DNA from: a virus
Virus record (IMG/VR): IMGVR_UViG_3300045988_161129
DNA: 40,999 nucleotides
Direction: 5' to 3' (one strand)
The notes beneath the pieces are model-generated. The model ran no database searches and was not told where the DNA came from. It saw only the letters and a program-made list of their open reading frames with translations. Shown one piece after another: positions 1 through 40,999 of the stretch. Each line of letters starts with the position of its first letter. Positions within the stretch are counted from its first letter, which is position 1. Position numbers and translations under genes: made by a program.

Positions 1-55
1 TTCTTTGGCTCTCTTTTCCTGGTTTGCGTCCTCGTCGGCGGAGTCCCTCCATTTT
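1..55. repeat. Terminal overlap copy 1 (identical to 40945-40999)
   Basis: Direct comparison shows ttctttggctctcttttcctggtttgcgtcctcgtcggcggagtccctccatttt at both ends. Confidence 0.95.
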
Positions 56-3000
56 TCAAGAGTGTCATCGAGATTATCATACAGCCCGGTAAGACTCAGT
101 TTTGTTTTTATTTCCGCAACTGTTTTGGTGTCTTTGTTCCGATAGGCCTGTTTGTATTTATCCCGATATTCGTTTGAAAACTTGTTTCTGACATTCTGCT
201 TTGCCTCAAGGGTGACTTTGTTCTGTCCTTTGGAATTGACCGCATATTGGTCGGCGCCGTTTTCAAGAAGCTTTTGTTTTTCTTCTTCAATCATTGTACG
301 AACGGCCTCTTTGGCGGCGGAGGAGTCGGCTTTTGCATATGCGGCGTTGTATTTATCCATGTTCTTTTTCGAACTTGTGCCCGTCTTTTGATTTTCTCCG
401 CTTGAAAGCAGGCTTTCTCCTTCGGCGATTTTATCGCCCAAGCTTACCATGCCTTCGACAAGCTTTCCGATGTTTGCAACGGGAACGCCGGTAAGGGTGC
501 CGGTTATTTTTGCAAGGTTGAGCCCCGATTTTCCCAAATCCTCTAAGTCGCCCTCGCCATTTACATATTTCGAAAAAGAGTCTCCGAACTTTTCGAGGTA
601 AACGGTAAAGTCGTTGATCGTTTCCACGCCGCCTATGGTTATAAAATCGTCGGCATTGCGACTGGAAAAACTGCCGTCATAAATTTGGTAGGCCGCTTTT
701 GCGATTTTCAGCATTTCGCTTCCGAAAAGGAGGTTTGACACAAAGCTATCGAGGAAGTTATATCCCACGTTGCCCCAAAACGACTCGGGGGTTATATCGT
801 CGTCGGGATCTCTGTACGCATAAAGACTCTGAAGCAGAATGTCCACTATTGTTTTCATGGCGGTAAGCGTGGTGGTAGCGACAATCTGTGAGAAAACTGC
901 TCGGCCGAATTCGTTCCTTGCCGTCTTTACATCCTCTGCGGTGACATCGCCCGAAGGATTGTTTTTATAGCTTTCGGAATAACTTCTCATTCTCGAAAAT
1001 GCGTCGTACAAAATACTGACATTTTGGAGGCGCTGCGTGTAGAACATGGTCATCGAACGAATAAGGTCTTTGTCAGACCGAAGTACGGCGGGACGCTGCA
1101 TGGTGGTGTAGTTGGGCTGTGTTCGCTCTACTACTCGATTGAACACCTTTGCAACTTCGTTGTAATAGTCGTCCTTTGCCTTTTGGAATTGCTCGTCGGA
1201 TATGGAATTTGCCTTGTGTTCGGCCGTCGCTTTGTCAAATGCTGCTTTCAGCTGAGAGTTGTTGTCATCAACATAAAATTGCGACGCATACCAAAGCCGT
1301 CCCACCGTGGCTCCGTCGATTTGGGTAATCCAATTCATAAGCCATGCGGTGTTTTTGAGGACTTTGTTTTGAGTCTTTCCCAAGTCCTTAATGTTTCCGA
1401 TTTCGGGATTTGAATACCCCGCCATACGGTAGGCAAGAAGGGGAGAGTATTCGGCAATAAGAGCCTTGTCGGCTTTTTTGAGTCCCATACCAAGAGCTTT
1501 GGTAAGAGGTTTCCACCCGATTTCCGCCGCTGCCGTGGGATAGGAGGCCGCCTGTGAGAGTGCGACTCTTGCATTGACCGAAAGGGTGGCTTGAGCCATG
1601 TTGCCGCGAATTCTGTTAAAAAAAGCGCTGCCGGACTTTTGCCTTGAGCCGGTTATATCTCCGAGAAGGTCGGAAATATACTTTCGTCCCTGTGTTCCGA
1701 ATTTTTCTCTGAGAGCGTTCTGCACCGATGTAAGCCCGTTTTCGTCGGTCATATTCTTGCCGTAAACCTTTTGAAACTCTCTGACCGAAGGCATAAGCCC
1801 CGCATAATTTGCAATGTCGTCGATATGTCCGTTGATTACGTCGGTAAGACCTTCAAGCATTATCGGGCTTCCCGAAAAGACACGCTCTTTTGTAAAGCCC
1901 ATGTTTTCAAGATTTGCCGCCTTTTGAATTACACCGAAATCCTCATTGCGGAAAGCCGAATCGGTATGAATCGGGAAGTAGTTTTCAATTCTCGCCTTTT
2001 CAAATCCGTAAACCATAAGCGTAACGGCGTTCATTTGGTCACGGCTGAATCCGTCGAAAAATTCCTTTGCCTTTGCAATCCACGCCCTGTCATAGTCGGT
2101 CATTTGTTCCGCAATTTTGTTTTTGATTTCCGCCGCTTTCGAATACGCCTGTGCAACAAGCAAATCGCGTTTTTCGTAAAGCTCGTCAAGCTGTTCGGCC
2201 TTATCGGCGGCATTTGAGTCCTTAACGGTTTCTATCCGCTCTCTTATGCGGTGGATTTCATCGACAAATTTGCCCTGCATAATTTCGGCTCTGACAGCGC
2301 CTTTACCGAAGGCTTCATTCTTTCCTTTGTAATATCCCTTTAAATCGGGAACGGTGAGACCGCCGTAAATAAGGTGTCGGGTGTTATCCTCGTTTTCGAG
2401 CATCATGTAAACGGCGTTCATCATGTCTCGGGTTATCTTTACAGAGTTTCCGTCGGAATCCACAAGGCCTATGTCGACCAAATCTTTTTCGTTAATGGAA
2501 ATAAGGCTGTCGACATTCTTCTTGTTTTTGCCCTCCACAAGCTCGTTGAACATCCGTTTCCCCTCGATAAGGATTGACGTCTTCTTAAGCTGTCCGTCGT
2601 TGAGCAGCGTGTACATCTTTTGCCATGCGCTGTTCTTTGCAAAACCTCCGAACCGTTCAAATACAGCCTCCGGGCGGGATTGTGCAAAGGTGTATTTTTG
2701 AGACAGCCGACCCATGTCCTTTGCCTGTCTCGTTTCTTTTATAAGCTGCTTGCTGAATTCCTTTGCGTTATGTTCCTCGCCCGCAATTTTAACCTTGATT
2801 GCGTCCTTGCAGAGCTTGTCCACGGCTTTGAGCGTATCGTAAATATACTCAAGGTTTTCCTTTGAAACCGCCGTAAACTTTCCGCTCGATTTTTCCACAA
2901 GGTTTTGTATCATGTCGGCAACGGTCGAATCATAAGCGCTTTGGTACTTTTCGCTTTTCTGAATCGCCTCATATGCCGATTTGAGGACTGAAAACTTTTG

Positions 3001-6000
3001 CGAAAGAGCGGCGCTTTTTCCGCTGTCAAGGTTGATTGCATTAAGCACTCCCGCAACGCTGCTCATAAGCTCTCGGGGGATATACTCATTCTTTTTGGGA
3101 TAGAGCAGCCGCCTGTTCATGTCGGCGGTAAGCGCCTTTATTTTATGACGTAAAGCCGTTCGGCTGCTGCGTTCTCTGCGCTTTTGGTTCTGCTGTCTAA
3201 AGCTTTCCTTGAGCTCGGATATTTTAGTGTCCCTCTGTTCTCTGAGCTTTTTAAGTGCCTCTTGCTTGTCGGCCTTGAGCTCGGAAATTTTTTGTTCCCG
3301 GATATTGACCTGCTGTTGTGCTCTGTCGGCAAAGGTCGTGTCGGGGCTTATTTCGTAAAATCTCTCGAGAATGTCCGCGCCGAGCACCGCTGCCGATTGT
3401 TCGGCCGACAGCTCGTCATTGCCGAGATACGGGTTAAATCCGCTTTTCTCATCAAGGCTATCCCTCACCTCGATAAGATTTCGCCACATATCCTGAGTGC
3501 TTTGCGCGTCCTTGTCGAGCAAGGGAACGGCGGCGCAAAGGTCATCCCAAATCTCGTCGATGTGAACGGCGTTTTCGGTTCCCTGCGCCCGCATGTTAAG
3601 TTTTTTGCCATATTGTCTGTATGCCGCGCCGAAGGTGCCGAACATGGCCGTCATTTCGGCCACGTCGTCAAGGTTCGGAATAAGCCGATGACTTCTCAGC
3701 TCTTTTTTATAGCTTTCAAAGGTTTCGGGAGTGATGTCCACAAAGGACTGTGCAATGACCGATTTTGCGATGTTGTTTGCCGCCTGCACGGCGTATGCAT
3801 AGTCCCAAGAGTTCTTCTCGCTGTTTGCGATAAACCCGTAAAGCCCCGTCAGCTCGTCTTTAAGATCATAAAAATTTATTTCGCTGGAATATTCGCCTAT
3901 AATGTTTCGGGCGACACGGTTAATGTCGGTCTGCACAAGGCGGTTTGCGCCTTTCCCGCCCATTCTCTTTGACTTGACAAATTCGCCTTTCAGCCTCTCA
4001 ATCTCGGCCTTGTAGTCGGCATTGCTCCGCATGAGGGAGGAAAGCTCCGCGTCGTCGGTCAGCCTCATTCCCGCGTCGGATATAGAGGCCTTTGTCTCGT
4101 CGGAAAGTTCAAAGCTTTTATATTTGTTCGAATTAGACAAATATTCCTTGTCGTTTTGTGCATAATATTTGTTGACAGTTTCTCTGTATTGTGATAAACT
4201 GTTAGAGTAATCGGCAGTAAATGCATGGTCGGGGAATTGGACCCCGGGTCTGCTTTTACCAAGCCGATTATTTTTTTCGGACGCATAAAGAATGCGTCCT
4301 TCTTTTTTTGCATTAAGCACATAGTTTAAAACATTGCTCTTTCCGTAACCGCTCAACATAACATTGCTGTCAAGGGTCATGTTATAAAGCTTGCCCTTGC
4401 CGTCCGGCTCAATGGCCGCAACAACATTGACACCGTTTTTGTCGGTGAGGCTTGTGACCGCTATAATGCGAAGGTCGTTTTGCTTTGCAGAGGATTTGAT
4501 TAAGAAAAGGGGCTTTTCAAGGGCTTTGGGGAGACCGAGCAGAATGTCTTTGCCAAGGTCATGATAATTCCGCCCTTTAACATATCTGCCGTCGGCTTTT
4601 GCCTGCGCCTCGCTCACCGTCATTGTGTATACATGGGTGGGAGTTATGAGCATGGGGCGGTTTTGCAGATGGAGAATACTCTGAAGGGAATTCGGAGTGT
4701 TTCCCATGTAGATGTGATTATTCTTGTCGAATGTGTTGTTAAGCACACCGTCAACCTGTTCTTCAAAGCTTTCGCTTACACTATATCTGAATTCTCCGTA
4801 TTCCGATTCATATACCGGCACGGTGCCGCTTTCAAAGAATTCGTTTATGTCGGACAGTATTTTTGAGGTTGCGGTTCCTTTGGGATAGGTTACGCTTCCG
4901 GCGGAATATCCGTTCTTTTTGGAAAAATCAACGCTGAATTCGTCGTTGTCTTTCATTATTTCGGGGATAACATCGCGGAGTCTGCTTATCTGCTCGGCAT
5001 TCGGAGCGGCGGATATATCTATTCCGTAGGTCTGCATTCGGATGTTGCCCATATTCATGAAATAAATAAGGCTGTCGGAATATTCGGCGCTGTCTGGCAT
5101 ATCGAGAATTTCCGAAATTTCTCTGTGGTCTTTGACACGGTAGCCCTGTCCGTCGGAAAAGTCAAGCATTTCACCGTTCGTGAGAATGTATGAGGCCAAA
5201 TCCACTCTTTCGGTAGTGCCGAAGGTGTCAACCGCCTTTTGTGCGTATTCGGCCTTTTGCCTGTCGGTGAGGTCGTCTACCGTCCGCATAAATTCATCTC
5301 TTGACTGTTCTTTTGCGCTGTCAATTCGCGCACGGAGATCCTTTTGTTCTCCCGTGATTTCCGACATACGTTTTGAGGCGGCATAAAGACCGCTGCTGTG
5401 TGTAAATTTTCCGTATTCTTTGATTGCCTCGTCGAGATCATCGCCTGCTCCCGTTGAGATAATGTCAAGCAGCCTTTTGTATTCGTCGCTTGATTTTATA
5501 CTGTCAACCTTTTTTTCGAGTTCTCGGTATTCACTCTGCAATTCGTTGAGACGGTCGCTGTCGCTTGTGCTGTATCTCACATCGGGATTATCGGTGGGAT
5601 TTTTGTTGTCAATCAATTTTGCTTGCTCGGAATTGAACGCAACATAAACATTAGAAGTTCCGTCTTTGTGTTCCCATTCCGCTATCATTCCGTCGTAACC
5701 GGTAGAATCGGTGAGCACGTTGTAAAATTCTTTTACAAGCATCGGATCATAGCCCCGGCCGTCGGCCACGGCAATTTCATAAACGAGATCGGAGTCGTTG
5801 TCGTTTGTGGAAAATAATTGATCAACAAATTCTCTGACGGCATTTGCTCTTGACGTACTGTAAGTGTCGACATAGTTTGAAAGAAACGAGTCTTGCCATG
5901 TAAGACCTTCATCAGCATACTTTTCTATGTCGAAATCAATTAAAGCATTGGCCAATTTTTTTATTTCATTTTTATTTACCGTAATTTGATTGTTGTACAA

Positions 6001-9000
6001 AGGCTTTGTAATATTCAAATAAAACTCTTTTTGAATATTACCGTATTTTTCGGTTATCTCGGGATCGTTGCTGAAATAAAATCCATAACCTTCTTGAGCT
6101 CCGTTTTTGCCTGCTTTTGAAAAATCAAAGATATTAAATTCATTGTTGGTTCCGTGCTTAACGACAAGAAGGTTTCCATCTTTGTTTCTCACCTTACTGT
6201 TGGCAAAATATTTCTGCTGGTTTTCGGAAAGTTGATTTCCATTGCTGTCGGAAACCGAAAAAGACGAATTATTTTTTGGATTTTGCATAGAATGGGTATT
6301 GACATTACCGTCTTTTTGTGGTACGGTGAAGTCGGCGGAAGGTTTATTGCTTTCCGTGTTTGAACCGGAACTACGGTTGGCTAACGGCAATTTGAGCCTA
6401 TTCAGCTTCAACCAGTTATCGGTTCTTTTTTTATCTTGATAAATAATATCACTTGTGTTTATAAAACGCTGCAAAGCAACATCTTTCCCGTATGCACTTG
6501 CCACCTTGATAAGATTAAGAGACTTTCCGTTGTTTGAGGTTGGATTGAGCTCTAAAACAGCCAAAACGGGTGCTCCGTTTGCGTCATAGACTTCACCGAA
6601 AAGCGTTAATCTGCCGGAAACAGTTTTGGAATTCATTATTAAAATGGGCGTTTCAAGAATATTCGGGATTTGTTTTATCACTTCGTCGGTCATTGCGGGG
6701 TGATTTTCTTTTATTTTAAGGATTTTTGATGCATCCCAACGAATATTTGCGTCCCTGACTCCCACAGATTTAAGAACGGATGAGGTTCTACCGAGCAAAA
6801 AACTGAAACGGGAGCTCTTTTTGTCCCATTTATCGTATTCGCTTTCAAACTTGGGGTTTACAGAATACTTCGTCTCCACGTTCTCCGCACCGACACCGAA
6901 ACGGTAATTCTCCGCCGCCTCGTCAACGCCCGTCCAAAGCATATCGGCTATTTTGTTCATATAGTCAACATCGCTCATAACCGAGTTTCGGATATATGCG
7001 TTGTCGTGAACAAAATACTTGTCAAAGGCATTGTTTATCATGGCGACGAATTCCCTGATAAAATCTTTGATTTTCTCGGCAATGCTCTTGTGCTCGCCGG
7101 CGAATTTTTCCCATTGCTCCTTGTTGGTCAGCGCCTCAAAGCAATGCTCGGCAACAATCTCCTCCTCGATTTTGGCCTTAAAGTTCTCGTCATTTGCATA
7201 AGCTCTGCCGTAACGTCGCGCATAGTCGTTAAATACCGACTCATATTGTCCCGCCTCTTTAAGGTGATCTATAACAAAAGCCGTGAAATCTTCGGCATAT
7301 TCCGCCGCAAGGTTCTTTATCATGTGGAAAAGCTCGTGCCCTGCCGTGGAAGTCAGCATATTTTTACCGTCAAGAGCGATTACTATAACGTTTCCGCCCG
7401 CATATTGACCGTTTATAATTTGGCCTTCAAGCTTCAGCTTTTCCGCAAGACTTCCCACAACTCGGATAACAACGCCTTTTTGCTTTGCCCATTCGTCAAG
7501 CAAACGGAGCTGACCGCGCTGATTTTTGTTAACCTTTCTGTCGGCCGAATAATCTCGGACAACACCGCCCGTCTTTTCAGCCTTTGTATTAGCCTCTGTG
7601 CGGGCTTCAGAGCGATTTTTATATTCATCCGTCTGTCTATATTGGATTTGTCTTTTCGTCTCGGCTTTGGCAGCCTTTCTGCCCGCCTCGTAAATCCTGC
7701 GTGCGCTGTCGCCTTTAATATCTCTCGTCGAGCGTTTAATGTCGGCAAAGGACGTTCCTTTTTTGCCCGCTTCGTAATACTTAGTGAAAGCTCGGTCATA
7801 GCTCGAGGCGGCAAGGTAATTGTTGCCGTTAAGATATTCGGTTGCATAAAGCGTCCTTGCCTCTGCCGGTTTTGCCGTCGCACGATTTATAACCGCTGCG
7901 CTTTCGCTGCCGATGTTTGCGGCAAAAGGAGAGAGATTTTCTCCGTTTTTTGTTGTGACATATGCGGCCACACCGTCGCGGGTGTTCTTGAAAGAGACGT
8001 TTGTTACTTTGTCGTAGTTGCTTTCGGCCAAAATATCGTCGGTGCGGGTGTCGAGGGAGTCTTTAAGAATAGCGGTAATATCTTTGCCTGCTCCATTTGA
8101 AAGCTCCTTAAAAACCTCCTGTGCCTCCTCTACCGTGTTTGCAGATAAAAAGCGGTCGGCTATTTCGGTTTCTACTGCCGTCTGAAGGTCTATTGCCGAG
8201 TCGAGGTCGGTTTTTCCTTCCGCAAGGTCGGCGGCCTCCTGTAAAAAGCCGTTGTTTCTGCCTTGCTCTTTGGCATAGTTAAGGAGCTGTTCTCTCCCGG
8301 CGGTTGAATAAGCGAGAGTAAGCCTGTCAGCGCTTTCGGCAGCCGTTGTCTGAGCAGTTCGGTATTCGTTGTAAACCGCCATTGCGTCGGCATTGTGAGT
8401 AAGCGCGGTTCTTTCCTGTCCTTTTACCGAGTCAATGCCCTCATTAAAAGCCTTTGCAATGGTTTCCGAAAGACTGTTTGCGTTCTCAACGCCTTTTGCC
8501 TCAAGCTTTGTTTTGATTTCGTTTCGGTCGACGGTATACGCATTTTCGAATTGATTTGATACTTCATCGGAAAGGAGCTTTCCAAGCTTTCTTGCCGATA
8601 CCTTTTCGCCCTTTTCGATTGCCGCTTTTGCCTCTATGGCTTGTGTGTTTTCGGGGTTTGCCTTGATAATTTCATCGAGGGCGGTTATAACGCTGTCGGA
8701 GGTCTTGAGTCTGTTTCCGACTTGAATTTGTTTTATGCCTCTTTTTGCGCTTTCGTTTATTTCCACGGCCTTTGCCATGTTATAGTTGCCGCCCGTCATA
8801 ACAAGGCCGGAGAGTGCTCCGCCGAGTCCCGCCGAGAGGTCGTCTCCGAGAATTTCCGTAATTGTTTTTGCGGAGGCTTCGGAAGGGGAGAGACCTTCGT
8901 TTATATAGCCGTAGTATTCCTGCATAACCTCCGATTGGTCGGCATTTACAAGAACATCAACAGCACGGTTGAGAATGTTTGAGGAGATTTCTTCGCTTCC

Positions 9001-11010
9001 TTCGGCGATAAGGGATTTTCCGAGCGTGCCGATAAAGCTTTTCGGGTCTTTAAGAACCTTTTCCACCGACCATATTTCGGTTATAGCCTCGATTGCGCCG
9101 GAAGTAAAGCCCATTGCAAGAGCCTTGCCGTCCGAAAGGCCTTTCTCTTTTGCGTCAATAATGGTTTGGGAGGCTACTTGGCTGCCCATAAGGGTAAAGT
9201 CAATGGTCTCAAGAGCGGCTTTGGATATGCCTTCACCGCCGCCCGCCGCCGCGCCTATGCCTTTGGTTACTGCCATTCTTGCAACGTTGTCCATGATACT
9301 TTCGGCGGTTTCTTTCGCAAAAAGACCCAAAGAACGATAATTGCCGTTTTCGTCCCGTCCGGCAAGCGCAAATTTTGTGTTCCAAACGCTGTCGGGGTTT
9401 TTCTTAAGGTAGTCCTCAAGCATTTGTGAGGTGGTTCCTCTGACTGTGCTTGTATAATGTGAAAGAAGATGAGACGGGGAATTCGTATCAATCCCTTTGC
9501 CGGTCATCCCGTTCCATGTGTCCTCAACAGAGCTTATTCCGCTTGTGAGATTGGAAAGAACCGCCAAAGCGCTGTGCATATAGGGGTTGTCCTGCGTGTC
9601 CTCTTGGGCGACTTGGGTAATGGTATCGGTCATTCTTTTGTTTAAAATGGGCGTAAGCTCATCAAGAAATTCCGCAGCCCTGTTTTTATCGGTGTTGTAA
9701 AGCCCGTAAAACACAGAGCGTTCCTTGTCCGTCATTTTGACGTTATACATATTGGCGGGATTGTTGTATACGTCTGCCGTGTTGTCTGCACCGAAATACA
9801 CATCGGATTCCTTGTCTTTTTCAACTTCGCTGTGCTTCAAAAACTCGGGATCGTCAAGCAGCGGCATATATTTATCATAAATCTCCTGCTGCAATTTCTC
9901 GAGCTGTTCGTCTGCTTTACGCTCATTGTAATAATTGCGTAATGTAGATGCGGCCGCTTCATATCTTACGGCTTTATCGTTTGCAGCCGCTTTTTCCTCA
10001 TCCGAATAAGGGTCGTGGTTATATAAATCTCCGCTGTCCTCAGGCGACCCCATTTCTTGATTTTCTTGCGCGAATTTTCTTATGCGATTGCTTTCATCCC
10101 TTGCATTTTTCGCCTGCCCCTCTTTAAGCGCAAGCTCATTTTCAAGTTCTTCTGTGGTGGCATAATGCTTTTTGTTGTTCTTTAACCATGCAAGCTCTCT
10201 TTTTTCGCTGTCCGAAAGCTCATATTCCCTTACGGCGAGTTTATGTTCCGCAAGGGAAAGGGTTTTATAATCGGCACCGTCGTATTTTAATGAAAAAGGA
10301 TTTCCGTCATCGTCATAATCGGCGCGGTTATTTTCCCAATCAAGCTTCAGCTGTTTGAGACGTTCAAGCTCGGATTTTGCGGAATTTATTTTTTCTTTGT
10401 TTTCTTTGGAAATGTTTTTGGCCGTGCTGCTTGACTTTCCTCTAAAACCGTAACGTAGTTTGTTGTTGCGGTTATAGTTATCATACTTTTCCTGTGCCGC
10501 CGCTATAAGGCTGTCAAGCTTTTGACCTTCGCCGTTTGTCATGTCGGTGGCGGCATCATAGCTTTCGGCGCTGTCATACTCGGCGAAAGAGTCCCTGCGC
10601 CGCGAAAGCTCATCCCAAAGCCCCTGGTCGGAATATACAGCAGAGGCCTTTGAAATATAGTCCTCCATTTGTTTTACGGCATCGGCACCGTAAACACGTT
10701 CATATGCTGCACGGTTTTTCTCGAGTCTCTCTCTGTAATCCTTAAGGCTTGCCATGGAGGAGTTGAGATAATCGCTTGCGGCGGTGTAGTCATCGGCGGT
10801 TTTGAAACCCTGCGAATAATATTTATTAAAAGCATTTTCTCCGACTGCGTTTTTTCGGAAGGCGGCAATGTCGTCAAAAAGTGTGTCTTTTCCGCTGCGA
10901 ATGTTGCTTATGGGCTTCATCTCGGAATAGGTCATGGGCTTTTCGTATTTGTCGACCGTCTGCTCCCTCTCAAGCGCCTTTCGATTTCTTTTCATTTCAG
11001 AATACGTCAT
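1..11010 (-). CDS. Giant multidomain virion (polyvalent, ejected-effector type) protein. In-window part is 3,670 codons; the gene continues across the junction to the stop at 40924-40926, total 3,676 aa
   Basis: ATG at 11010 lies 9 nt after a GAGGAGAG RBS. I hand-translated the minus frame (codon low coordinate = 1 mod 3) from 11010 to 1 and found no stop. No fragment of this frame appears in the ORF track, as expected for an ORF that lacks a stop inside the window. N-terminus is MTYSEMKRNRKALEREQTVDKYEKP; in-window C-terminus is ...LEKWRDSADEDANQEKRAKE. Confidence 0.85.
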   Translation of the reverse strand, partial: MTYSEMKRNRKALEREQTVDKYEKPMTYSEMKPISNIRSGKDTLFDDIAAFRKNAVGENAFNKYYSQGFKTADDYTAASDYLNSSMASLKDYRERLEKNRAAYERVYGADAVKQMEDYISKASAVYSDQGLWDELSRRRDSFAEYDSAESYDAATDMTNGEGQKLDSLIAAAQEKYDNYNRNNKLRYGFRGKSSSTAKNISKENKEKINSAKSELERLKQLKLDWENNRADYDDDGNPFSLKYDGADYKTLSLAEHKLAVREYELSDSEKRELAWLKNNKKHYATTEELENELALKEGQAKNARDESNRIRKFAQENQEMGSPEDSGDLYNHDPYSDEEKAAANDKAVRYEAAASTLRNYYNERKADEQLEKLQQEIYDKYMPLLDDPEFLKHSEVEKDKESDVYFGADNTADVYNNPANMYNVKMTDKERSVFYGLYNTDKNRAAEFLDELTPILNKRMTDTITQVAQEDTQDNPYMHSALAVLSNLTSGISSVEDTWNGMTGKGIDTNSPSHLLSHYTSTVRGTTSQMLEDYLKKNPDSVWNTKFALAGRDENGNYRSLGLFAKETAESIMDNVARMAVTKGIGAAAGGGEGISKAALETIDFTLMGSQVASQTIIDAKEKGLSDGKALAMGFTSGAIEAITEIWSVEKVLKDPKSFIGTLGKSLIAEGSEEISSNILNRAVDVLVNADQSEVMQEYYGYINEGLSPSEASAKTITEILGDDLSAGLGGALSGLVMTGGNYNMAKAVEINESAKRGIKQIQVGNRLKTSDSVITALDEIIKANPENTQAIEAKAAIEKGEKVSARKLGKLLSDEVSNQFENAYTVDRNEIKTKLEAKGVENANSLSETIAKAFNEGIDSVKGQERTALTHNADAMAVYNEYRTAQTTAAESADRLTLAYSTAGREQLLNYAKEQGRNNGFLQEAADLAEGKTDLDSAIDLQTAVETEIADRFLSANTVEEAQEVFKELSNGAGKDITAILKDSLDTRTDDILAESNYDKVTNVSFKNTRDGVAAYVTTKNGENLSPFAANIGSESAAVINRATAKPAEARTLYATEYLNGNNYLAASSYDRAFTKYYEAGKKGTSFADIKRSTRDIKGDSARRIYEAGRKAAKAETKRQIQYRQTDEYKNRSEARTEANTKAEKTGGVVRDYSADRKVNKNQRGQLRLLDEWAKQKGVVIRVVGSLAEKLKLEGQIINGQYAGGNVIVIALDGKNMLTSTAGHELFHMIKNLAAEYAEDFTAFVIDHLKEAGQYESVFNDYARRYGRAYANDENFKAKIEEEIVAEHCFEALTNKEQWEKFAGEHKSIAEKIKDFIREFVAMINNAFDKYFVHDNAYIRNSVMSDVDYMNKIADMLWTGVDEAAENYRFGVGAENVETKYSVNPKFESEYDKWDKKSSRFSFLLGRTSSVLKSVGVRDANIRWDASKILKIKENHPAMTDEVIKQIPNILETPILIMNSKTVSGRLTLFGEVYDANGAPVLAVLELNPTSNNGKSLNLIKVASAYGKDVALQRFINTSDIIYQDKKRTDNWLKLNRLKLPLANRSSGSNTESNKPSADFTVPQKDGNVNTHSMQNPKNNSSFSVSDSNGNQLSENQQKYFANSKVRNKDGNLLVVKHGTNNEFNIFDFSKAGKNGAQEGYGFYFSNDPEITEKYGNIQKEFYLNITKPLYNNQITVNKNEIKKLANALIDFDIEKYADEGLTWQDSFLSNYVDTYSTSRANAVREFVDQLFSTNDNDSDLVYEIAVADGRGYDPMLVKEFYNVLTDSTGYDGMIAEWEHKDGTSNVYVAFNSEQAKLIDNKNPTDNPDVRYSTSDSDRLNELQSEYRELEKKVDSIKSSDEYKRLLDIISTGAGDDLDEAIKEYGKFTHSSGLYAASKRMSEITGEQKDLRARIDSAKEQSRDEFMRTVDDLTDRQKAEYAQKAVDTFGTTERVDLASYILTNGEMLDFSDGQGYRVKDHREISEILDMPDSAEYSDSLIYFMNMGNIRMQTYGIDISAAPNAEQISRLRDVIPEIMKDNDEFSVDFSKKNGYSAGSVTYPKGTATSKILSDINEFFESGTVPVYESEYGEFRYSVSESFEEQVDGVLNNTFDKNNHIYMGNTPNSLQSILHLQNRPMLITPTHVYTMTVSEAQAKADGRYVKGRNYHDLGKDILLGLPKALEKPLFLIKSSAKQNDLRIIAVTSLTDKNGVNVVAAIEPDGKGKLYNMTLDSNVMLSGYGKSNVLNYVLNAKKEGRILYASEKNNRLGKSRPGVQFPDHAFTADYSNSLSQYRETVNKYYAQNDKEYLSNSNKYKSFELSDETKASISDAGMRLTDDAELSSLMRSNADYKAEIERLKGEFVKSKRMGGKGANRLVQTDINRVARNIIGEYSSEINFYDLKDELTGLYGFIANSEKNSWDYAYAVQAANNIAKSVIAQSFVDITPETFESYKKELRSHRLIPNLDDVAEMTAMFGTFGAAYRQYGKKLNMRAQGTENAVHIDEIWDDLCAAVPLLDKDAQSTQDMWRNLIEVRDSLDEKSGFNPYLGNDELSAEQSAAVLGADILERFYEISPDTTFADRAQQQVNIREQKISELKADKQEALKKLREQRDTKISELKESFRQQNQKRRERSSRTALRHKIKALTADMNRRLLYPKKNEYIPRELMSSVAGVLNAINLDSGKSAALSQKFSVLKSAYEAIQKSEKYQSAYDSTVADMIQNLVEKSSGKFTAVSKENLEYIYDTLKAVDKLCKDAIKVKIAGEEHNAKEFSKQLIKETRQAKDMGRLSQKYTFAQSRPEAVFERFGGFAKNSAWQKMYTLLNDGQLKKTSILIEGKRMFNELVEGKNKKNVDSLISINEKDLVDIGLVDSDGNSVKITRDMMNAVYMMLENEDNTRHLIYGGLTVPDLKGYYKGKNEAFGKGAVRAEIMQGKFVDEIHRIRERIETVKDSNAADKAEQLDELYEKRDLLVAQAYSKAAEIKNKIAEQMTDYDRAWIAKAKEFFDGFSRDQMNAVTLMVYGFEKARIENYFPIHTDSAFRNEDFGVIQKAANLENMGFTKERVFSGSPIMLEGLTDVINGHIDDIANYAGLMPSVREFQKVYGKNMTDENGLTSVQNALREKFGTQGRKYISDLLGDITGSRQKSGSAFFNRIRGNMAQATLSVNARVALSQAASYPTAAAEIGWKPLTKALGMGLKKADKALIAEYSPLLAYRMAGYSNPEIGNIKDLGKTQNKVLKNTAWLMNWITQIDGATVGRLWYASQFYVDDNNSQLKAAFDKATAEHKANSISDEQFQKAKDDYYNEVAKVFNRVVERTQPNYTTMQRPAVLRSDKDLIRSMTMFYTQRLQNVSILYDAFSRMRSYSESYKNNPSGDVTAEDVKTARNEFGRAVFSQIVATTTLTAMKTIVDILLQSLYAYRDPDDDITPESFWGNVGYNFLDSFVSNLLFGSEMLKIAKAAYQIYDGSFSSRNADDFITIGGVETINDFTVYLEKFGDSFSKYVNGEGDLEDLGKSGLNLAKITGTLTGVPVANIGKLVEGMVSLGDKIAEGESLLSSGENQKTGTSSKKNMDKYNAAYAKADSSAAKEAVRTMIEEEKQKLLENGADQYAVNSKGQNKVTLEAKQNVRNKFSNEYRDKYKQAYRNKDTKTVAEIKTKLSLTGLYDNLDDTLEKWRDSADEDANQEKRAKE

Positions 11011-11021
11011 GGTATCTCTCC

Positions 11022-12029
11022 TCATCTGTATCTGCTGTCTCGTTTTTTCAGTTCTTCTCCGTACTTATCCATAAAATCATCTCCGTAACCGAGCTCATTT
11101 GCAATTTCATCAACAATGTCCACATAATCGCTGCCGGAATAACCGTAAGGATTGCTGTTGAGATAACCGTAAACTGTATCTTTCAAGGTAGTCGGGTCTT
11201 CGATTTTTTTAAGCTTTGCCTTAAGTGTGTTGGTCATTTTGGTTTTAATGCTGTCGCTTTGCTGATTTTTGGCCTCAAGCTGTGCCTTAAGGCTCGATAT
11301 CGCCGCCGACTGGTCGTTGTTTTTCTTGGTTTCGTTCATCTGCTCCCGCCACTGTGCGTCCGAAACGCTGTCACGCTCTCGTTGATAGGCCATTTTGTCG
11401 TTATACTCGTCGGCACTCATTTTGGCGTTTGCATTGTTCCATTGATTTTGAATGTTGCTGTCGTATTTGCTCTTTTCACGATTGTAGGTGTTCTCGTACA
11501 TACTCTGCGCCATGCTTGCAAGGGTTCCTTGCTGCTCAAATCCAGTTGCCCACCGACTGTAATCGGTGTTGTCAAGGTTCTGATAAAGGCTCGCAAGGTT
11601 AAGCAGGTCTTGTCCTTCCTGCTGATACCGTTCGTAGGCCAACTGTTCAAGCTCGGGTATTTTGCTGTTGAGGTCGTTCATGTAATTGTTGAACACCTGT
11701 TGGCCTGCGGTTTGGCCGTAAGAAGAACCATAGCCCCCCGTAAGCGCCGCCGCTTTGCCCTGCGTGTCCTCCATGGCCTGTTTTCCGTTACGGGTATATT
11801 GCTCCTTATATAAACCGTAAAGCGCGTCCTCAGCCGTATTGTATGAAAATTTATCACGGTTCTTTATGGCATCTACCGTTGAATTGAGGTCGTTTTGATA
11901 TTTGCCGTTGTATGAGCCGTAATTTGCAAGGCGGTTAAATTGAAAATCCGCCTGCTGCTTTTTTCTTTTTGCGTCCTCCGACTCGGAAAAATTATAATTT
12001 ATGGGGTTAAAGCTTAATGCCATTTTCAA
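11022..12029 (-). CDS. Virion structural protein, function unknown (335 aa, Gln/Asn/Tyr-rich)
   Basis: ORF with an AAGGAGAG RBS. It lies between the tail-type genes and the giant gene. No family recognised. Confidence 0.5.
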   Translation of the reverse strand: MKMALSFNPINYNFSESEDAKRKKQQADFQFNRLANYGSYNGKYQNDLNSTVDAIKNRDKFSYNTAEDALYGLYKEQYTRNGKQAMEDTQGKAAALTGGYGSSYGQTAGQQVFNNYMNDLNSKIPELEQLAYERYQQEGQDLLNLASLYQNLDNTDYSRWATGFEQQGTLASMAQSMYENTYNREKSKYDSNIQNQWNNANAKMSADEYNDKMAYQRERDSVSDAQWREQMNETKKNNDQSAAISSLKAQLEAKNQQSDSIKTKMTNTLKAKLKKIEDPTTLKDTVYGYLNSNPYGYSGSDYVDIVDEIANELGYGDDFMDKYGEELKKRDSRYR

Positions 12030-12041: not shown

Positions 12042-12632
12042 TTAAACCGTTCCTATTGCAAGCCATGACACAGGAACCGAAAAATTGTTGTCATCAACGA
12101 AAAATCCCACGGCCATAATGCGGCTTTTTATGTAAAACCCGCTGTTCTTTGGGTCGCAAACCGAAAAATCATAGAGACAGTAGTCGGTTTTGCCTTGAAT
12201 ATAATCATCGGGCGCAATAAATATCTGCGGTGCCGATTTATATTCGGTGGGAAAAGCAATTTCTGGTGCGGTGTATACAAGCTGACGCAAGGCAAATGTT
12301 CCCACTTCGGTTTCTGCGCTTGTCCTTTTTGTAACCGAAACAGTTTGAGGCAACGACCAATCCGCACTTGATAAGTCTCCAAAACCGATATTTGTTTTTC
12401 CGCTCTGAATAAGCGTGTCTCCGATTTGAAAAGATACCACCCCTGCGGTTTGCTTTTTTACCGATATTTTGGCCGTGCCGTTTTCGTCATCGTTATTACA
12501 TTCGATTGCTTCTTTTGCCCGCATAAGGTCGACAAGCTTGTAAAGATATTCATTTATCTGTGCGATTTGCTGATATGGATTTCCCGAAAGGGTAGGAGGG
12601 AGTCCATAATCGTATTTGTTTTTGTTGCTCAT
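12042..12632 (-). CDS. Virion structural protein, function unknown (196 aa)
   Basis: ORF in the structural operon; its start overlaps the stop of the upstream gene by 4 nt. Confidence 0.5.
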   Translation of the reverse strand: MSNKNKYDYGLPPTLSGNPYQQIAQINEYLYKLVDLMRAKEAIECNNDDENGTAKISVKKQTAGVVSFQIGDTLIQSGKTNIGFGDLSSADWSLPQTVSVTKRTSAETEVGTFALRQLVYTAPEIAFPTEYKSAPQIFIAPDDYIQGKTDYCLYDFSVCDPKNSGFYIKSRIMAVGFFVDDNNFSVPVSWLAIGTV

Positions 12633-14770
12633 CGTCTGCTCCCGTATTTATACATCTTTGAAATGCCGAAAAGGGAAAATGCGCCCTTTCCCGATACTTT
12701 TATTCTTACATGATCGCACCGGCGGGGGACAATCGGTATATTTACCGTTGCCATTCGTACAGTAGGATTTACCGTTCTGTACTCCTGCCATGTTCCCGAC
12801 GAGTCATACATGAGCGACACCGTAAGACTTGCGCCTTTTTCAAGCTTAAGTCTCATCATAAAGCGGGAAAGACTCTTTTTGTCGGGGCTCTCAAGCCCCA
12901 ACTCTCCCGTTTCAAAGAACCACCCGAAAGGACTTTCCTCTTTGGGAACAAAAGGATTCATTCCCACATTGCCGTAGATGCTTTCGGACGAAAGATTGAG
13001 TTTTCCTTTTGTTCCGTTAACGGTTTTGATTTTTCCGTCGTCTCCGTCAAGGAAAAACATATCTCCGTCGCACTCACAGCAAAATCTCATATATGTGTCT
13101 TGCTCTTTTGTCCATATCCCTGTTTGTGTGTCGTACACAAACAGTTTATGAACGCCGAGTCCGTCTTTCATAGAACAATAAAGCTTTTTCCCGCACGTTC
13201 CGAAAACAGCTTCGTAATATATTTCATGGCCGAGCGGAGAGGAGATTTTTTGCGGAATACTGCCCGTATATGAATAAATACCGTCGGAGGCCTTGTAGTA
13301 AAGCACACCGTCAATAATTGCAATGCCTTTGTAACTGCCCTTTTGTACTCCTTTAACGTCAAGAGTGACCGAAGTATAGGGCGTGTAGTCTCCGTAAACC
13401 TTGTGTATACATTCCTCTTTAAAAAAGAGAATTTGTCCGTTCCATGCAACGCAGCCGGTAAAAACTCCGTCGGTGCCGACCGTGATTGCTTCCGCGTCGG
13501 TACTTATTCCTTCATAGGCATACCAATTGTCGGGGTCTCCGAGCTTGGTACAATAAATTTCGTGGCCGTCCTCTGAGCAGCCCCAAAGGCGATTGTTATA
13601 TTCGGTAACATAGGCAAGGTCGGGAACGCTCCGGCAAATGGCAAAGCTGAGAAAATTTGAAGAATATTCGAGGGAAACGGTTTCGGGGCCGGTAACCTTA
13701 AAGGTGAACGGCTCAAGCTGAATGTCGAGAACAATTCCGCCCATGCCGTTAAGCTCGCCTATAATTTTGTAGCCACGCGAAACGTATTTATAAAAGCTCT
13801 TTTTGGTTATTTCGGTAAGATAAGTTTCCTGATTAACCTTTATGTCGCTTGTATAGTCTCCGTTGTCAGAACGTTCAAGGGGAGTGTCGTTTGAGGTGGT
13901 ATCATCGGTAAAATAAAAGTCCACAACGTCGCCGGTTTTAAGCCCGGTGAAAAGATATGAGCCGAAATCATCCTTGACGGCCGTTTTCCAATCGTACACT
14001 TGATTCCATGAGGCTTTTTCGTTTCTGTAACTGAGTCGGAAAAGCACGGCCGACTCTCCGTATTTTTTGTTGTTATCGGAATTTGTTTTGTCGGGAACGT
14101 AAAGCCAATACTTTCCGTTATCGTCGCTGTCGATATTTTCGGTGGTTGAGGAGGGCTTTTTGGTGGGTTCGTCGTGCTGCTTCCATGACAGCTCATATAT
14201 ATTACCTTCACCGTCGCAGGGGACGAAATTCACATTTGTATAGCGATAAGAACCGCTTGTTGAAACATTTCCTGTCGGCAGCTCGCCTCTGAATATCTCC
14301 ATAAGGTTCCATGTCTTAATTATGTTGACTTCTTCTCCGTCATCCCACTCGGTTTCAAACCATATTTTATCGGGGAAAATACAAACCTTGCTCCCGAGCT
14401 TAATCATCTGTCGGTCTTTTGTGCCGGCATTTTGTATAAAGAGTCCGCCGCTCGTTGAGGCTTGCTGTTGCTTTCTGCCGTTGTCATAAATCCAAAGGGG
14501 AGGGGAGGTTCTTGTGTCTGAAGGGTCGGTGTCAAGCCACATAGGATGTTCAAACCCTTTTGACACCATGCCGCGGCAAGAGGATGTCTGAGCCACCTCG
14601 TACCTGCGTTTGCGTGTGGATATAACGGGATAATCGTCACAAGACAGGTTCTCCATGTCAAAGAATTCCGAAGAACCTATTCTTAAGCTGTGATTATATC
14701 CCTTGAATTCCTGTATATACTCCTGCGTCCTCCCGAGTGAATTAAGCGTGGGATAATTCAAAAAAATCAC
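12629..14770 (-). CDS. Large tail-type structural protein with propeller-like repeats (713 aa; possible tail tube or nozzle protein of a podovirus)
   Basis: Long ORF with recurring DG-x-[IL]Y / G-x-[IV]W type beta-strand repeats (GVLYYKASDGIYSY, KLFVYDTQTGIWTKE, DMFFLDGDDGKIKTV). The GTG at 14770 has a weak RBS; the TTG at 14761 after AGGTGA may be the true start. Confidence 0.5.
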   Translation of the reverse strand: MIFLNYPTLNSLGRTQEYIQEFKGYNHSLRIGSSEFFDMENLSCDDYPVISTRKRRYEVAQTSSCRGMVSKGFEHPMWLDTDPSDTRTSPPLWIYDNGRKQQQASTSGGLFIQNAGTKDRQMIKLGSKVCIFPDKIWFETEWDDGEEVNIIKTWNLMEIFRGELPTGNVSTSGSYRYTNVNFVPCDGEGNIYELSWKQHDEPTKKPSSTTENIDSDDNGKYWLYVPDKTNSDNNKKYGESAVLFRLSYRNEKASWNQVYDWKTAVKDDFGSYLFTGLKTGDVVDFYFTDDTTSNDTPLERSDNGDYTSDIKVNQETYLTEITKKSFYKYVSRGYKIIGELNGMGGIVLDIQLEPFTFKVTGPETVSLEYSSNFLSFAICRSVPDLAYVTEYNNRLWGCSEDGHEIYCTKLGDPDNWYAYEGISTDAEAITVGTDGVFTGCVAWNGQILFFKEECIHKVYGDYTPYTSVTLDVKGVQKGSYKGIAIIDGVLYYKASDGIYSYTGSIPQKISSPLGHEIYYEAVFGTCGKKLYCSMKDGLGVHKLFVYDTQTGIWTKEQDTYMRFCCECDGDMFFLDGDDGKIKTVNGTKGKLNLSSESIYGNVGMNPFVPKEESPFGWFFETGELGLESPDKKSLSRFMMRLKLEKGASLTVSLMYDSSGTWQEYRTVNPTVRMATVNIPIVPRRCDHVRIKVSGKGAFSLFGISKMYKYGSRR

Positions 14771-15471: not shown

Positions 15472-16728
15472 TTAGTTCTCACTTATTTTTGTGCTGTACT
15501 CGTTGATGGACTCGATACGAACCATATAGAAGTCATTAAGAATAATGGCCGCTTTGGTTGCCTTCCATCCGGACGAACTTCTCTGATTAAGAGGATCGTC
15601 GCCGTAACCGAGCTGTTTGACGATGTGCTGAAGACCGCCGCCCGAAAGCTCGGTAGTGGCATATGCATTAGAACCGAGCACAATGGTGCTGAATACGGCT
15701 CCGGCGGTTTTCGATGCACCCTTTCCGCAAATGACCGACCCTGCAGGAACAACGGCCGCAAGAGCAGTACCAAGGGTGATGGTGGAAGTGCCGGTACTGG
15801 TATCTGCGGAAACGCCGGTGATGGTGTTGGCTACACCGTTAACATATACCTGAGCGGTAGCGGTTGATTTCTCAAAAATACCGTTGACCTTGACGGTGGT
15901 ATTAGAAGCCGCCGCATCAGCCGAAACAACGGCTGAATTTTCTCCGCCTTTAAAGATTGCACCGGGAAGGAACACCTTTGCTTCGGTGGATTCTACAAAA
16001 CGGACTCCGCCGATGGATCCAATCTCTCCCTCGAATATCTTGGTGGCGTTGCTGTATTTGTTAACATCGATCCACTCGTCGTCAAACGACATTATGTCAT
16101 ATGCGGTGAAAGGATGGATGATGGCAACATACTTGCCGTCAATGGTGGGTGCATTCTTAGCTTTAAGGGTTGCGGCCGCACGGAAGATCTCATCAAGGGT
16201 AATATGGCAGTCGGCGGTCAGATCACCACGGCTGTAAATAGGAGTTTTGCTGTTACCCGAAACCTTGTGGGCGTACTGAACATTGGTGCCTCCGTTGATG
16301 ACCTCACGGGTGATGGTGTCAAGGGTTCTGCCGGCCTGACTTCCCAGCACCTTAGTGCGTTCGTCAAGAATGGGATCAATGGTAGTGAGCTGGAGCAGGT
16401 CGGATGACTGAATCCATCCGCCGTACTGTTTAATGGTGGTGGTGATCGCAGAAACGCTCAGGTTCTGTCCCTTGGGGGTCTTCGCTTCGGTAAGTGCGGT
16501 CAGTGCCTTAGGCAGCGCGGCAGTTCTGCGGAATTCAATGGTTTTGCCGGACCCCGGAGGAATGGGTTTCTTTACGGCAAACTGGTCATGAATGAGCAGG
16601 GGCTCTGCACTTCTGAGCAGTTGGCGATCGTAATAAGTCTTCATCTCGGCCGACATGCCGGGCGAATCGGTGGTATCGGGGGTGGTAGATCCGTCAAACA
16701 GATTAAGTATGATTTTAATAAGTTTCAT
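15472..16728 (-). CDS. Major capsid protein, N4-gp56-like family, with an N-terminal leader
   Basis: 418 aa following the scaffold gene. The segment GSGKTIEFRRTAALPKALTALTEAKTPKG...IKQYGGWIQSSDLLQLTTIDPILDERTKVLGSQAGRTLDTITREV matches my memory of the N4 gp56-type capsid signature. The leader is MKLIKIILNLFDG. Confidence 0.8.
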   Translation of the reverse strand: MKLIKIILNLFDGSTTPDTTDSPGMSAEMKTYYDRQLLRSAEPLLIHDQFAVKKPIPPGSGKTIEFRRTAALPKALTALTEAKTPKGQNLSVSAITTTIKQYGGWIQSSDLLQLTTIDPILDERTKVLGSQAGRTLDTITREVINGGTNVQYAHKVSGNSKTPIYSRGDLTADCHITLDEIFRAAATLKAKNAPTIDGKYVAIIHPFTAYDIMSFDDEWIDVNKYSNATKIFEGEIGSIGGVRFVESTEAKVFLPGAIFKGGENSAVVSADAAASNTTVKVNGIFEKSTATAQVYVNGVANTITGVSADTSTGTSTITLGTALAAVVPAGSVICGKGASKTAGAVFSTIVLGSNAYATTELSGGGLQHIVKQLGYGDDPLNQRSSSGWKATKAAIILNDFYMVRIESINEYSTKISEN

Positions 16729-16770: not shown

Positions 16771-17616
16771 TTAAAGTTTTATTTTTTCTCCCCGTTGGAC
16801 ACGTCGGGACACATCCTCAAGTTCTTCTTTCGACCATGAGGACGGGTCGCTCTTTGTCTTGGCAGGGGCCGAACCGTTCATAGCGCTTTCTTTCGGGCGT
16901 TGTCCGTTCGCCTTTACGCTGTCTGCAACGGCTTTTTGTGCTTTCTGCTCCACAAACTGAGTGTAAGCGGGCATAATCTCATCGCGATGGATAAGCTCGT
17001 ATGCATCGCGCACGGTTACACCCGGAGTCTGGAGCAATGACCTAAAACGATCGCTTTTCAGTTCTTCATTGAGGTTGAGCTGCGGATAGATACGCTGTGC
17101 GTCCTGCGCCTGCTTCATCCATTCGGAGACCTGTTTGTCAATCGTTTCCTGTCGCTGTCTTTCGGCCATTTCTCTTTTAAGAGCCTCGTTTTCCCTAAGG
17201 AGAGCTTTGCTGTGTTTAAGCTCATCCACGGGCATACCTTTTTTCATAGCCTCTTCTTCATAAAAGCTGTCGTCTTCATCAAGGGCTTTTAAAATGGCGT
17301 TCGGGTCGTTTGCGTCCACTCCGTATTTTTCGGAAAGGCGCTGACCGACGGAGGAAAAGGCTTTGAGCTGTTTCTCCGTTTCCTTTGATTTTTTAAGACG
17401 ATCGCTTAAGATACCTTTGACCTCAGCGTCAAAGATGTCTTTGAAGTCGGCTTTGAACTTGCTGTATTGTTCGGCTCTCGACGGTTCATCGGCACCTGCC
17501 GTGCCGTTGTTTGCAGGAGAGGTCTGCGCAGATACGCTCTCTGAGGCTCCGCCTTCGGAGCCGCCGCCCTCACCGTCAAAGAGATTGAGGACGATAGGAA
17601 TAAATTTTTCGAGCAT
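16771..17616 (-). CDS. Scaffolding protein (281 aa from ATG 17616; the track's TTG start at 17652 lies inside a regulatory repeat)
   Basis: Acidic, coiled-coil-rich ORF between the Prp and capsid genes. An AAAGGAG RBS sits 7 nt before ATG 17616. The leader is MLEKFIPIVLNLFDG. Confidence 0.7.
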   Translation of the reverse strand: MLEKFIPIVLNLFDGEGGGSEGGASESVSAQTSPANNGTAGADEPSRAEQYSKFKADFKDIFDAEVKGILSDRLKKSKETEKQLKAFSSVGQRLSEKYGVDANDPNAILKALDEDDSFYEEEAMKKGMPVDELKHSKALLRENEALKREMAERQRQETIDKQVSEWMKQAQDAQRIYPQLNLNEELKSDRFRSLLQTPGVTVRDAYELIHRDEIMPAYTQFVEQKAQKAVADSVKANGQRPKESAMNGSAPAKTKSDPSSWSKEELEDVSRRVQRGEKIKL

Positions 17617-17628
17617 AAAAAGCTCCTT

Positions 17629-33427: not shown

Positions 33428-33442
33428 AAATGAGGTGAGTGT

Positions 33443-34510: not shown

Positions 34511-34523
34511 AGGAGAAATAAAT

Positions 34524-40892: not shown

Positions 40893-40919
40893 AAAGGGAA
40901 CCTTTTTTAGGTTCCCTTT
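40893..40919 (-). terminator. Stem-loop (10-bp perfect stem aaagggaacc / ggttcccttt, 7-nt loop) directly after the giant gene stop
   Basis: Perfect inverted repeat 40893-40902 / 40910-40919. On the minus strand the stem ends in TTT followed by TAATAT. It sits in the 54-nt gap before the next gene. Confidence 0.6.
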
Positions 40920-40923: not shown

Positions 40924-40999
40924 CTATTTTTGCCTTTCGGCGTATTCTTTGGCTCTCTTTTCCTGGTTTGCGTCCTCGTCGGCGGAGTCCCTCCATTTT
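40924..40999 (-). CDS. 3-prime end of the giant gene after wrap-around (...EKRAKE-YAERQK-stop). Bases 40945-40999 duplicate 1-55
   Basis: Continuing the frame from position 1 into 40944 gives tac gcc gaa agg caa aaa TAG (stop at 40924-40926). A hairpin follows immediately. Confidence 0.75.
   Translation of the reverse strand, partial: KWRDSADEDANQEKRAKEYAERQK
40945..40999. repeat. Terminal overlap copy 2 (identical to 1-55)
   Basis: The same 55-mer as bases 1-55. This is typical of a circular contig closed by a k-mer overlap, though a short genuine terminal repeat cannot be excluded. Confidence 0.95.

Follow-up and report, generated by a model that had tools for sequence, protein, structure and literature searches.

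Polyvalent proteins, which were described by Iyer et al. in 2017 from phages as well as conjugative elements, are predicted in the case of phages to be packaged in the head and injected with the DNA, and their zincin peptidases are likely processing modules (PMC5512222). These authors infer virion packaging and injection from a context of late virion genes, count the virion RNA polymerase (vRNAP) of phage N4 among polyvalent proteins and equate the MuF-C domain with the PBECR RNase-like domain (PMC5512222). Here, we describe a giant gene with such a context, found in the IMG/VR virus record IMGVR_UViG_3300045988_161129 (hereafter the window, i.e. the whole stretch of 40,999 nt that was analyzed). 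Its 3,676-aa product is probably a polyvalent protein that would be made late, packed into the capsid and ejected into the next host with the DNA or just ahead of it.

Other giant phage genes have been reported. In phage phi24B, gp47 (vb_24B_48; 2,807-2,811 aa) was detected by proteomics as an abundant protein of purified virions and is unseen in the cryo-electron microscopy map. It was proposed as an ejection protein, and the authors suggest a trans-envelope conduit (bioRxiv 10.64898/2026.04.10.717836). Furthermore, prophages phi1 and phi4 of Clostridium clostridioforme LM41 carry an unusually large open reading frame (ORF) of 8 kb, almost 20% of the genome, that was read as polyvalent (PMC11318856). 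A giant ORF, regarded as unusual by the original prediction for this DNA, had thus already been published for these prophages.

A single giant gene crosses the junction of a circular genome

The two ends of the window share an exact direct overlap of 55 nt, bases 40945-40999 being a repeat of bases 1-55. The record is therefore a circular sequence of 40,944 bp that was opened at an arbitrary point. Machine translation of the reverse complement from an ATG at 11010-11008 gives 3,670 codons without any stop (1..11010, minus strand), and the last six codons, followed by a TAG stop (40924-40926), are reached across the circular junction (40924..40944, minus strand). This stop-free retranslation bears out the original prediction, which had proposed a gene of 3,676 codons that crosses the junction and takes 27% of the genome. 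The gene (11,031 nt, i.e. 26.9% of the 40,944-bp genome) encodes, on the circularized sequence, a full product of 3,676 aa and 412.5 kDa with an isoelectric point of 5.4. It was missing from the mechanical list of ORFs because this list drops those that run off an end. When an assembly is linearized inside such a gene, gene callers and ORF tracks miss it and a quarter of the genome resembles junk, a defect that is cured by circular-aware annotation.

The junction is also covered by independent assemblies. A 1,000-nt piece that spans it aligns as one contiguous block, with 99.7% identity, to an independent contig of 41,258 bp (L033), and a second sister, the 42,008-bp IMG/VR contig L036, is likewise contiguous across it. 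In L033, the gene order is as in the window and the corresponding protein (P0016, 3,646 aa, retrieved by the exhaustive search described below) is encoded mid-contig. This protein is 98% identical to that of the window over aa 1-1384 and has an identical C-terminus (...EYAERQK). Since the same gene is intact and internal in these two independent sister assemblies, the junction is real and not the assembly artefact that had been feared. Moreover, the probability of finding by chance an open frame this long, as calculated from base composition, is ~1e-93, and the ratio of non-synonymous to synonymous substitution rates (dN/dS) against L033 equals 0.075 over aa 1-1384 and 0.067 over the C-terminal 1,850 aa, which correspond to the two conserved arms. 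The giant frame is one real gene under purifying selection.

The ribosome-binding site announced before ATG 11010 is present as a Shine-Dalgarno-like GAGGAGAG (11016..11023, minus strand), located 5 nt upstream of the start codon and overlapping the stop codon of an upstream gene that encodes a 335-aa protein. The hairpin noticed 3' of the giant-gene stop is also present (40893..40919, minus strand). Its stem is of 11 bp by folding, instead of the 10 bp first counted, with a 5-nt loop, a folding free energy of -16.6 kcal/mol and a z-score of -3.7. A consensus terminator scan did not call it as a terminator; it is possibly a weak terminator or an attenuator ahead of the 499-aa gene located downstream. 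At the other end of the gene, the heptapeptide MTYSEMK is duplicated (aa 1 and aa 26), with a basic stretch after each copy (aa 1-33; 10933-11010, minus strand). This duplication is also present in P0016 and in L036, and Met26 could be an alternative start.

Modular organization of the giant protein

Across the relatives, the architecture of the family is fixed: an N-module, an HExxH domain, a variable center and a C-module. In the window, these modules are preceded by a poorly conserved, charged and helical region (aa 1-420; 9751..11010, minus strand) that has no family matches and is not covered by relatives from genome assemblies. The N-module itself (aa ~420-800; 8611..9753, minus strand) belongs to the conserved backbone. 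It is predicted to be helical and displays the motifs MGSxVA...KEKGxSD...TEKxSIE...AEGSEE. It matches PHROG 22978 with an E-value of 8.8e-43 and, among the 150 top representatives of the family, up to 141 align to it.

The next conserved domain (aa ~1140-1380; 6871..7593, minus strand) is a putative zincin-like metallopeptidase. It includes the single HExxH motif of the protein (HELFH, aa 1225-1229; 7324-7338), for which E1284, ~55 residues downstream, is a candidate third ligand. The H, E, H and downstream E residues are invariant in family alignments of 31 and 14 sequences. The matches of this domain to known families are all sub-threshold: MPTase-PolyVal (PF18818) for two of the 14 members (best E = 0.018), DUF885 (1e-5) and DUF6782 (0.0037). 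Against PDB, its profile retrieved coiled-coil or designed-helix noise only. In a mostly helical model of aa 380-1420, with a predicted local distance difference test score (pLDDT) of 72.5, the HExxH motif is carried by a helix beside a small beta-sheet. Foldseek found no significant match for this model in PDB, anthrax lethal factor appearing only at E ~1.

The hypervariable region that follows (aa ~1372-2301; 4107..6896, minus strand) would hold the effector cassettes, and its content agrees with the effector-like modules of the original prediction. It encodes, all on the minus strand, a first PBECR RNase-like MuF_C domain (aa 1430-1531; 6418..6723; Pfam PF18819, E = 1.5e-36 for the protein), an ART-PolyVal ADP-ribosyltransferase (ART) domain with HGT ... 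GYGFYFS (aa 1609-1806; 5593..6186; Pfam PF18760, E = 1.4e-15) and a second, PBECR-like MuF_C domain (aa ~2147-2246; 4273..4572; Pfam PF18819, E = 5.1e-13). The HGT and GYGFYFS of the ART region resemble the motifs of the H-Y-E class. In a pairwise alignment, the two MuF_C copies share 22% identity. Beyond these three domains, searches of the whole protein gave no further significant Pfam match, no NCBIfam match and no PDB match by sequence. The Pfam models built from Iyer et al. 2017 leave some three quarters of the protein unmatched, among them the entire backbone. No transmembrane-grade hydrophobic segment was found in the giant protein.

The C-module (aa ~2350-3550; 361..3963, minus strand) is a conserved all-alpha backbone of ~1,100 aa with the motifs NYFPIHTD, AQAASYPTAAAE, TQPNYTxMQRP, MFxTQRLQN and YRDPDDD. 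Its AlphaFold2 model is all-helical (pLDDT 71.6, predicted template modeling score 0.62). Comparison with PDB gave nothing significant using this model in Foldseek (best E = 0.13) and only coiled-coil or designed-helix noise using the profile. Against BFVD, the model has 47 matches at E <= 1e-3, the best being C-terminal pieces of giant proteins from uncultured phages that are named in UniProt after ART-PolyVal, LPD or MuF_C domains. At the end of the list stand weak matches (E = 8e-4 to 4e-3, template modeling (TM) score ~0.2) to phage proteins of ~1,250 aa, among which one has an SLT transglycosylase domain. We take the architecture of the latter to recall that of T7 gp16; Pfam scans found no SLT domain in the giant protein. 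Besides, the acidic cluster YRDPDDD (aa 3395-3401; 808-828) is conserved family-wide, with YRDxDxE or RDDD as consensus, and could be a metal-binding or cleavage site.

Exchange of the center between sister phages

The window and L033 share ~97% DNA identity, except for two blocks inside the giant gene that have no nucleotide similarity, i.e. 6865-6327 (aa ~1383-1561) and 6173-5637 (aa ~1613-1791). In the first of these slots, L033 carries an LPD3-like domain that replaces MuF_C, and in the second, a different allele of ART-PolyVal. In L036, the whole stretch 6896-4107 (aa ~1372-2301) is replaced without any nucleotide similarity, and its flanks are 94-99% identical. ART-PolyVal and MuF_C domains are again present in the center of L036, in highly divergent forms. 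Using 100-aa windows, amino acid identity is mostly 95-100% in the arms of both sisters, the exceptions being two stretches close to the N-terminal end of L036 where it drops to 61-79%, and in the center it is only 15-43%. Fixed arms and a swapped center in three sister phages fit a delivery chassis whose cargo would be engaged in an arms race. These three genomes provide an unusually clean view of cargo exchange in a fixed backbone and would mark the boundary between chassis and weaponry.

A large family found mainly in Clostridia

The giant protein gives five colinear matches to PHROG 22978, a 3,513-position profile without annotated function (E = 8.8e-43 to 3e-13, profile positions 249-3070), located at aa 425-790, 1171-1533, 2290-2650 and 2605-3420. 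Therefore, the family had already been clustered from known phage or prophage proteins. The central cargo of PHROG 22978 differs from that of the giant protein.

In a large protein database, 14 proteins are related to the C-terminal ~1,100 aa. Profile searches of the genome assemblies of GTDB and of IMG/VR were done with a trimmed core (aa 3000-3340). This core was found at 30 loci in GTDB assemblies (mostly metagenome-assembled genomes (MAGs), with two isolates), nearly all of Clostridia type, and at 24 loci of IMG/VR, where the giant frame takes 16-28% of viral contigs of 38-44 kb. The open frames around the core range, for both sets, from 1,864 to more than 4,114 aa, and the C-module was recognized in each of the 28 giant ORFs that were compared among those of genome assemblies. 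Furthermore, an exhaustive HMMER search with aa 380-1420 retrieved 1,280 clusters (50% identity) at E <= 1e-3, including 730 at E <= 1e-10. The top 150 representatives have a median size of 2,935 aa, 65 of them have 3,000 aa or more, and sizes go up to 4,239 aa. The C-terminal core was recognized in 93 of the 124 large representatives as well. PBECR5, ART-PolyVal, LPD3, RadC and PriCT_1 domains occur in relatives with this backbone. The size of the gene, presented as unusual by the original prediction, is actually common, the backbone being found in ~1,280 clusters of mostly 2-4.2 thousand aa and at the 30 assembly and 24 IMG/VR loci. These data indicate a very large family in gut metagenomes, with hosts nearly all of Clostridia type; its members are unstudied and ~75% of each sequence is without domain assignment.

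Relatives from Papillibacter cinnamivorans DSM 12816 and Pseudoflavonifractor phocaeensis are located on contigs of 0.5 Mb and are therefore integrated prophages. Three other loci (L004, L016 and L020) come from bins that bear the labels Paludibacteraceae, Muribaculaceae or Bacteroidales. Their contigs measure 32-44 kb, i.e. the size of a whole phage. They are likely free phage genomes that were mis-binned into Bacteroidota MAGs and not evidence of host range. Among 50,697 phage records, megablast gave no match and the backbone is carried by no cultured phage; tblastn retrieved only uncultured human-faecal fragments, plus isolated ART or MuF_C matches.

Two relatives are called shorter in ENA contigs. 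The gene called at 2-5190 of L001 is preceded, at the contig end, by a fragment in another frame, and the one called at 3424-10001 of L002 is preceded by ~6.5 kb with a single gene call, on the opposite strand. These short calls may result from frameshifts, contig-end splits or miscalls, which suggests that the giant genes of the family are often mis-annotated. In L002, a HicA/HicB toxin-antitoxin pair (13562-14305) is located immediately after the giant gene.

Proposed role and alternative explanations

According to the explanation that we favor, the giant protein would be synthesized late, alongside the virion proteins of a temperate, podovirus-like phage of Clostridia. A few copies would enter the capsid by means of the conserved arms, possibly with the 335-aa partner and a 713-aa internal protein encoded nearby, and would be expelled at infection through the portal and the tail, with the DNA or just before it. 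The backbone (N-module, HExxH domain and C-module) would act as a chassis for entry into and exit from the capsid and may contribute to the ejection conduit. Cleavage of the polypeptide, which would free its parts, is probably due to the putative HExxH peptidase. The cargo, made of PBECR-type RNase-like domains (two copies), an ADP-ribosyltransferase and segments without assignment, would then hit host RNA and proteins in the first minutes of infection, blunting defence or taking over the cell. We infer the packaging and ejection of the protein, its processing by proteolysis, its enzymatic activity and its targets from domain content, from gene position and from the precedents of phi24B and of Iyer et al. 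An injected multidomain protein, as put forward by the original prediction, is also the reading that the literature gives of such an architecture, and it seems reasonable (PMC5512222).

Several points weigh against this explanation. The backbone has no relative in Pfam, NCBIfam or PDB, which leaves conservation and position as the grounds for its proposed role. The assignment of the HExxH domain as a putative zincin peptidase rests on its motif and on sub-threshold matches. Pfam scans found neither a Phage_Mu_F (MuF) nor a portal domain in the giant protein, fusion to which usually anchors phage polyvalent proteins in the virion. The resemblance to T7 gp16 is weak (E ~1e-3 to 1e-4, TM score ~0.2), with nothing significant in PDB. 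Lastly, the giant gene lies among presumed tail genes, a position compatible with a purely structural role in the tail.

The giant protein could thus be mainly a structural part of the tail or ejectosome (a channel, a needle or a tape-measure-like protein), with enzymatic domains that serve to penetrate the thick Gram-positive wall. Its gene adjoins presumed tail genes (713, 196, 335 and 499 aa) in a genome with few other tail candidates, its backbone is long and helical in predicted models, and the C-module has weak fold matches to the ~1,250-aa phage proteins (one with SLT) and to entries named 'structural protein'; a trans-envelope conduit is, moreover, what the phi24B authors proposed for their giant protein. 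However, wherever relatives have been studied, the targets of ART and PBECR domains are intracellular proteins and RNA, not walls (PMC5512222). Searches of the giant protein revealed no peptidoglycan hydrolase domain, the M15 lysin being encoded by a separate gene, and a center that is swapped among near-identical phages is unusual for a load-bearing part. A mainly structural role therefore appears unlikely, keeping in mind that it overlaps the best explanation: chassis and cargo could both hold. Still less probable is a factor associated with lysogeny, i.e. a toxin expressed from the prophage, a weapon of superinfection exclusion or a host-fitness factor that would not be a virion protein. 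ART and RNase domains are common among toxins, hosts may capture polyvalent proteins for use against incoming elements according to Iyer et al. (PMC5512222), and the giant ORF is found at one end of the prophage in some integrated relatives (PMC11318856; phi24B layout). Such a factor fits poorly with the late-operon orientation of the gene, its gap of 11 nt to the preceding gene and its own Shine-Dalgarno sequence, and with a position in the morphogenesis cluster that is conserved in relatives. Furthermore, a scan around the 3' junction, the side that it covered, gave no promoter-like site, and no hydrophobic segment or secretion-related domain was found in the protein.

A size near that of N4 gp50 (3,500 aa), a similar position after structural genes and the inclusion of the N4 vRNAP among polyvalent proteins (PMC5512222) would speak for a virion RNA polymerase of gp50 type that transcribes early genes after injection. 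However, family scans of Pfam, PHROGs and NCBIfam and a search for NADFDGD or DxDGD-type motifs were negative, as the original prediction had already noticed for polymerase motifs. The domain-free stretches where a polymerase could lie (aa 1-420, 800-1140, 1830-2100 and 2300-2350) are short and/or swapped between sisters. Moreover, no PDB match was found by sequence, and this database is expected to include N4-type and crAss-type virion RNA polymerases; alignment to gp50 by hhalign gave a probability of <1%. This polymerase is largely refuted and highly improbable. Finally, the only point in favor of something other than one gene (a chance frame, fused genes or a chimera of contig ends) is the passage of the ORF across the record ends. 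The chance probability of ~1e-93, a dN/dS of ~0.07 and full-length single ORFs in two sisters, where they are internal, and in dozens of relatives refute it and leave it a negligible probability.

The ejected polyvalent protein thus remains our favored explanation, and it can be extended more tentatively. It is conceivable that the backbone and its always-adjacent 335-aa partner form an undefined delivery chassis of podovirus-like phages of Clostridia, unrelated to MuF, to T7/P22 ejection proteins and to N4 gp50, with a plug-in cargo bay of ~900 aa in which effector cassettes are swapped among phages that are nearly identical elsewhere. If true, this would be a natural programmable system that injects megadalton-scale protein cargo into gut anaerobes.

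Genomic context

The genes located upstream on the same strand encode, in order, an HTH (helix-turn-helix) small-terminase-like protein, TerL, a P22-like portal, a 109-aa protein, a scaffold-like protein, the major capsid protein and proteins of 85, 123, 713, 196 and 335 aa, and then comes the giant gene. It begins 11 nt past the preceding gene, in the same orientation, within the late morphogenesis operon. Its position just after the portal, scaffold, capsid and other structural genes, proposed by the original prediction, agrees with this annotation, and the phage does bear an integrase, as had also been claimed. Downstream, across the junction, lie the 499-aa gene and then an M15 endolysin with a peptidoglycan-binding domain, accompanied by a holin in L033. 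The genome also encodes a replisome organiser and a tyrosine integrase (34986-36020); no tRNA was found in the window. From this gene content, we conclude that the phage is temperate and of short-tailed type.

In relatives, the giant gene is always within the virion module, for instance between portal and scaffold in L020 or adjoining TerL in L022. The 335-aa gene directly upstream (11022..12029, minus strand) has a homologue at most a few hundred bases upstream of the giant gene in at least eight loci (L002, L003, L012, L013, L019, L020, L024 and L028). It stays beside the giant gene even in L020, where the latter adjoins the portal. The 335-aa protein has no family match and no PDB match. 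The 713-aa virion gene (12629..14770, minus strand), which is syntenic with the giant gene, matches PHROG 511 'internal virion protein' (E = 1.3e-58); its PDB search gave nothing.

Other genes of the window deserve mention. The L033 orthologue of the 109-aa gene that follows the portal gene (17699-18028, minus strand) matches Peptidase_Prp (PF04327). Furthermore, the scaffold-like protein (16771-17652, minus strand) and the major capsid protein (15472-16728, minus strand) share (I/V)LNLFDG near their N-terminus, which we take to resemble the motif cleaved by Prp in ribosomal protein L27 and in the capsid and scaffold proteins of staphylococcal phage 80alpha. Together, these features suggest a phage-encoded maturation protease of Prp type. 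The Prp-type cleavage motif was sought in the giant protein and is absent from it. A stand-alone adenine methyltransferase of the MT-A70 family (23143-23679, minus strand; E = 4e-29) presumably performs self-methylation against restriction, which would complement an injected anti-defence protein. Lastly, the integrase region (33440-36059) has no nucleotide similarity to L033 or L036, and its flanks are 97-99% identical; the integrase has 353 aa in L033 vs 344 aa in the phage of the window. The integration module looks like it was exchanged relative to the sister phages, perhaps with a different attachment site.

Comparison with known systems

By the domains that it contains, the giant protein falls among the phage polyvalent proteins, a class that has been described before and is very common. 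As in those described by Iyer et al., two PBECR/MuF-C domains, an ART-PolyVal domain and an HExxH peptidase-like domain are joined in one polypeptide, the gene lies among the late virion genes of a portal-terminase phage, and the domain architecture varies among relatives (LPD3, PBECR5, RadC, PriCT_1). A zincin MPTase is a common, non-obligatory theme of the class, and the giant protein has an invariant HExxH...E with sub-threshold matches to PF18818. Unlike the usual phage polyvalent proteins, it has no fusion to MuF or portal, a fusion that is frequent in the class and not obligatory, and its gene takes 27% of the genome. No concept is changed by this locus, since the class, the predicted role and a giant ORF in a small Clostridia prophage have all been published already.

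The closest experimental precedent is gp47 of the Stx phage phi24B. This protein, too, is giant, polyvalent and equipped with a MuF_C domain, and phi24B is likewise temperate and short-tailed. However, the host of phi24B is Gram-negative and the gp47 gene takes ~15% of its genome. Between the two proteins, only the MuF_C domains align (BLASTP E = 7e-8 and 7e-6). Homology with the backbone of phi24B gp47 or of 933W-type proteins (PHROG 616) was rejected (hhalign probability <2%). The ORFs of the C. clostridioforme LM41 prophages, which are likened to the giant gene by their published description only, are shorter.

N4 gp50, which is packaged in the virion and injected, resembles the giant protein by its size (3,500 aa) and by its position after structural genes. 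In contrast, the cargo of the giant protein is RNase-like and ART, the phage is temperate and its portal is P22-like. Homology with gp50 was rejected, hhalign giving <1% probability for both conserved modules. The N4-like layout seen by the original prediction therefore holds as a functional analogy and fails as homology, given this profile comparison and the P22-like portal. Finally, ejection proteins of T7 gp16 and P22 types have a long helical body, are carried in the capsid, are expelled to bridge the envelope and can include an enzymatic domain (SLT in gp16); the C-module of the giant protein may recall them by its weak BFVD matches. The giant protein is about three times larger and carries effector domains of intracellular type.

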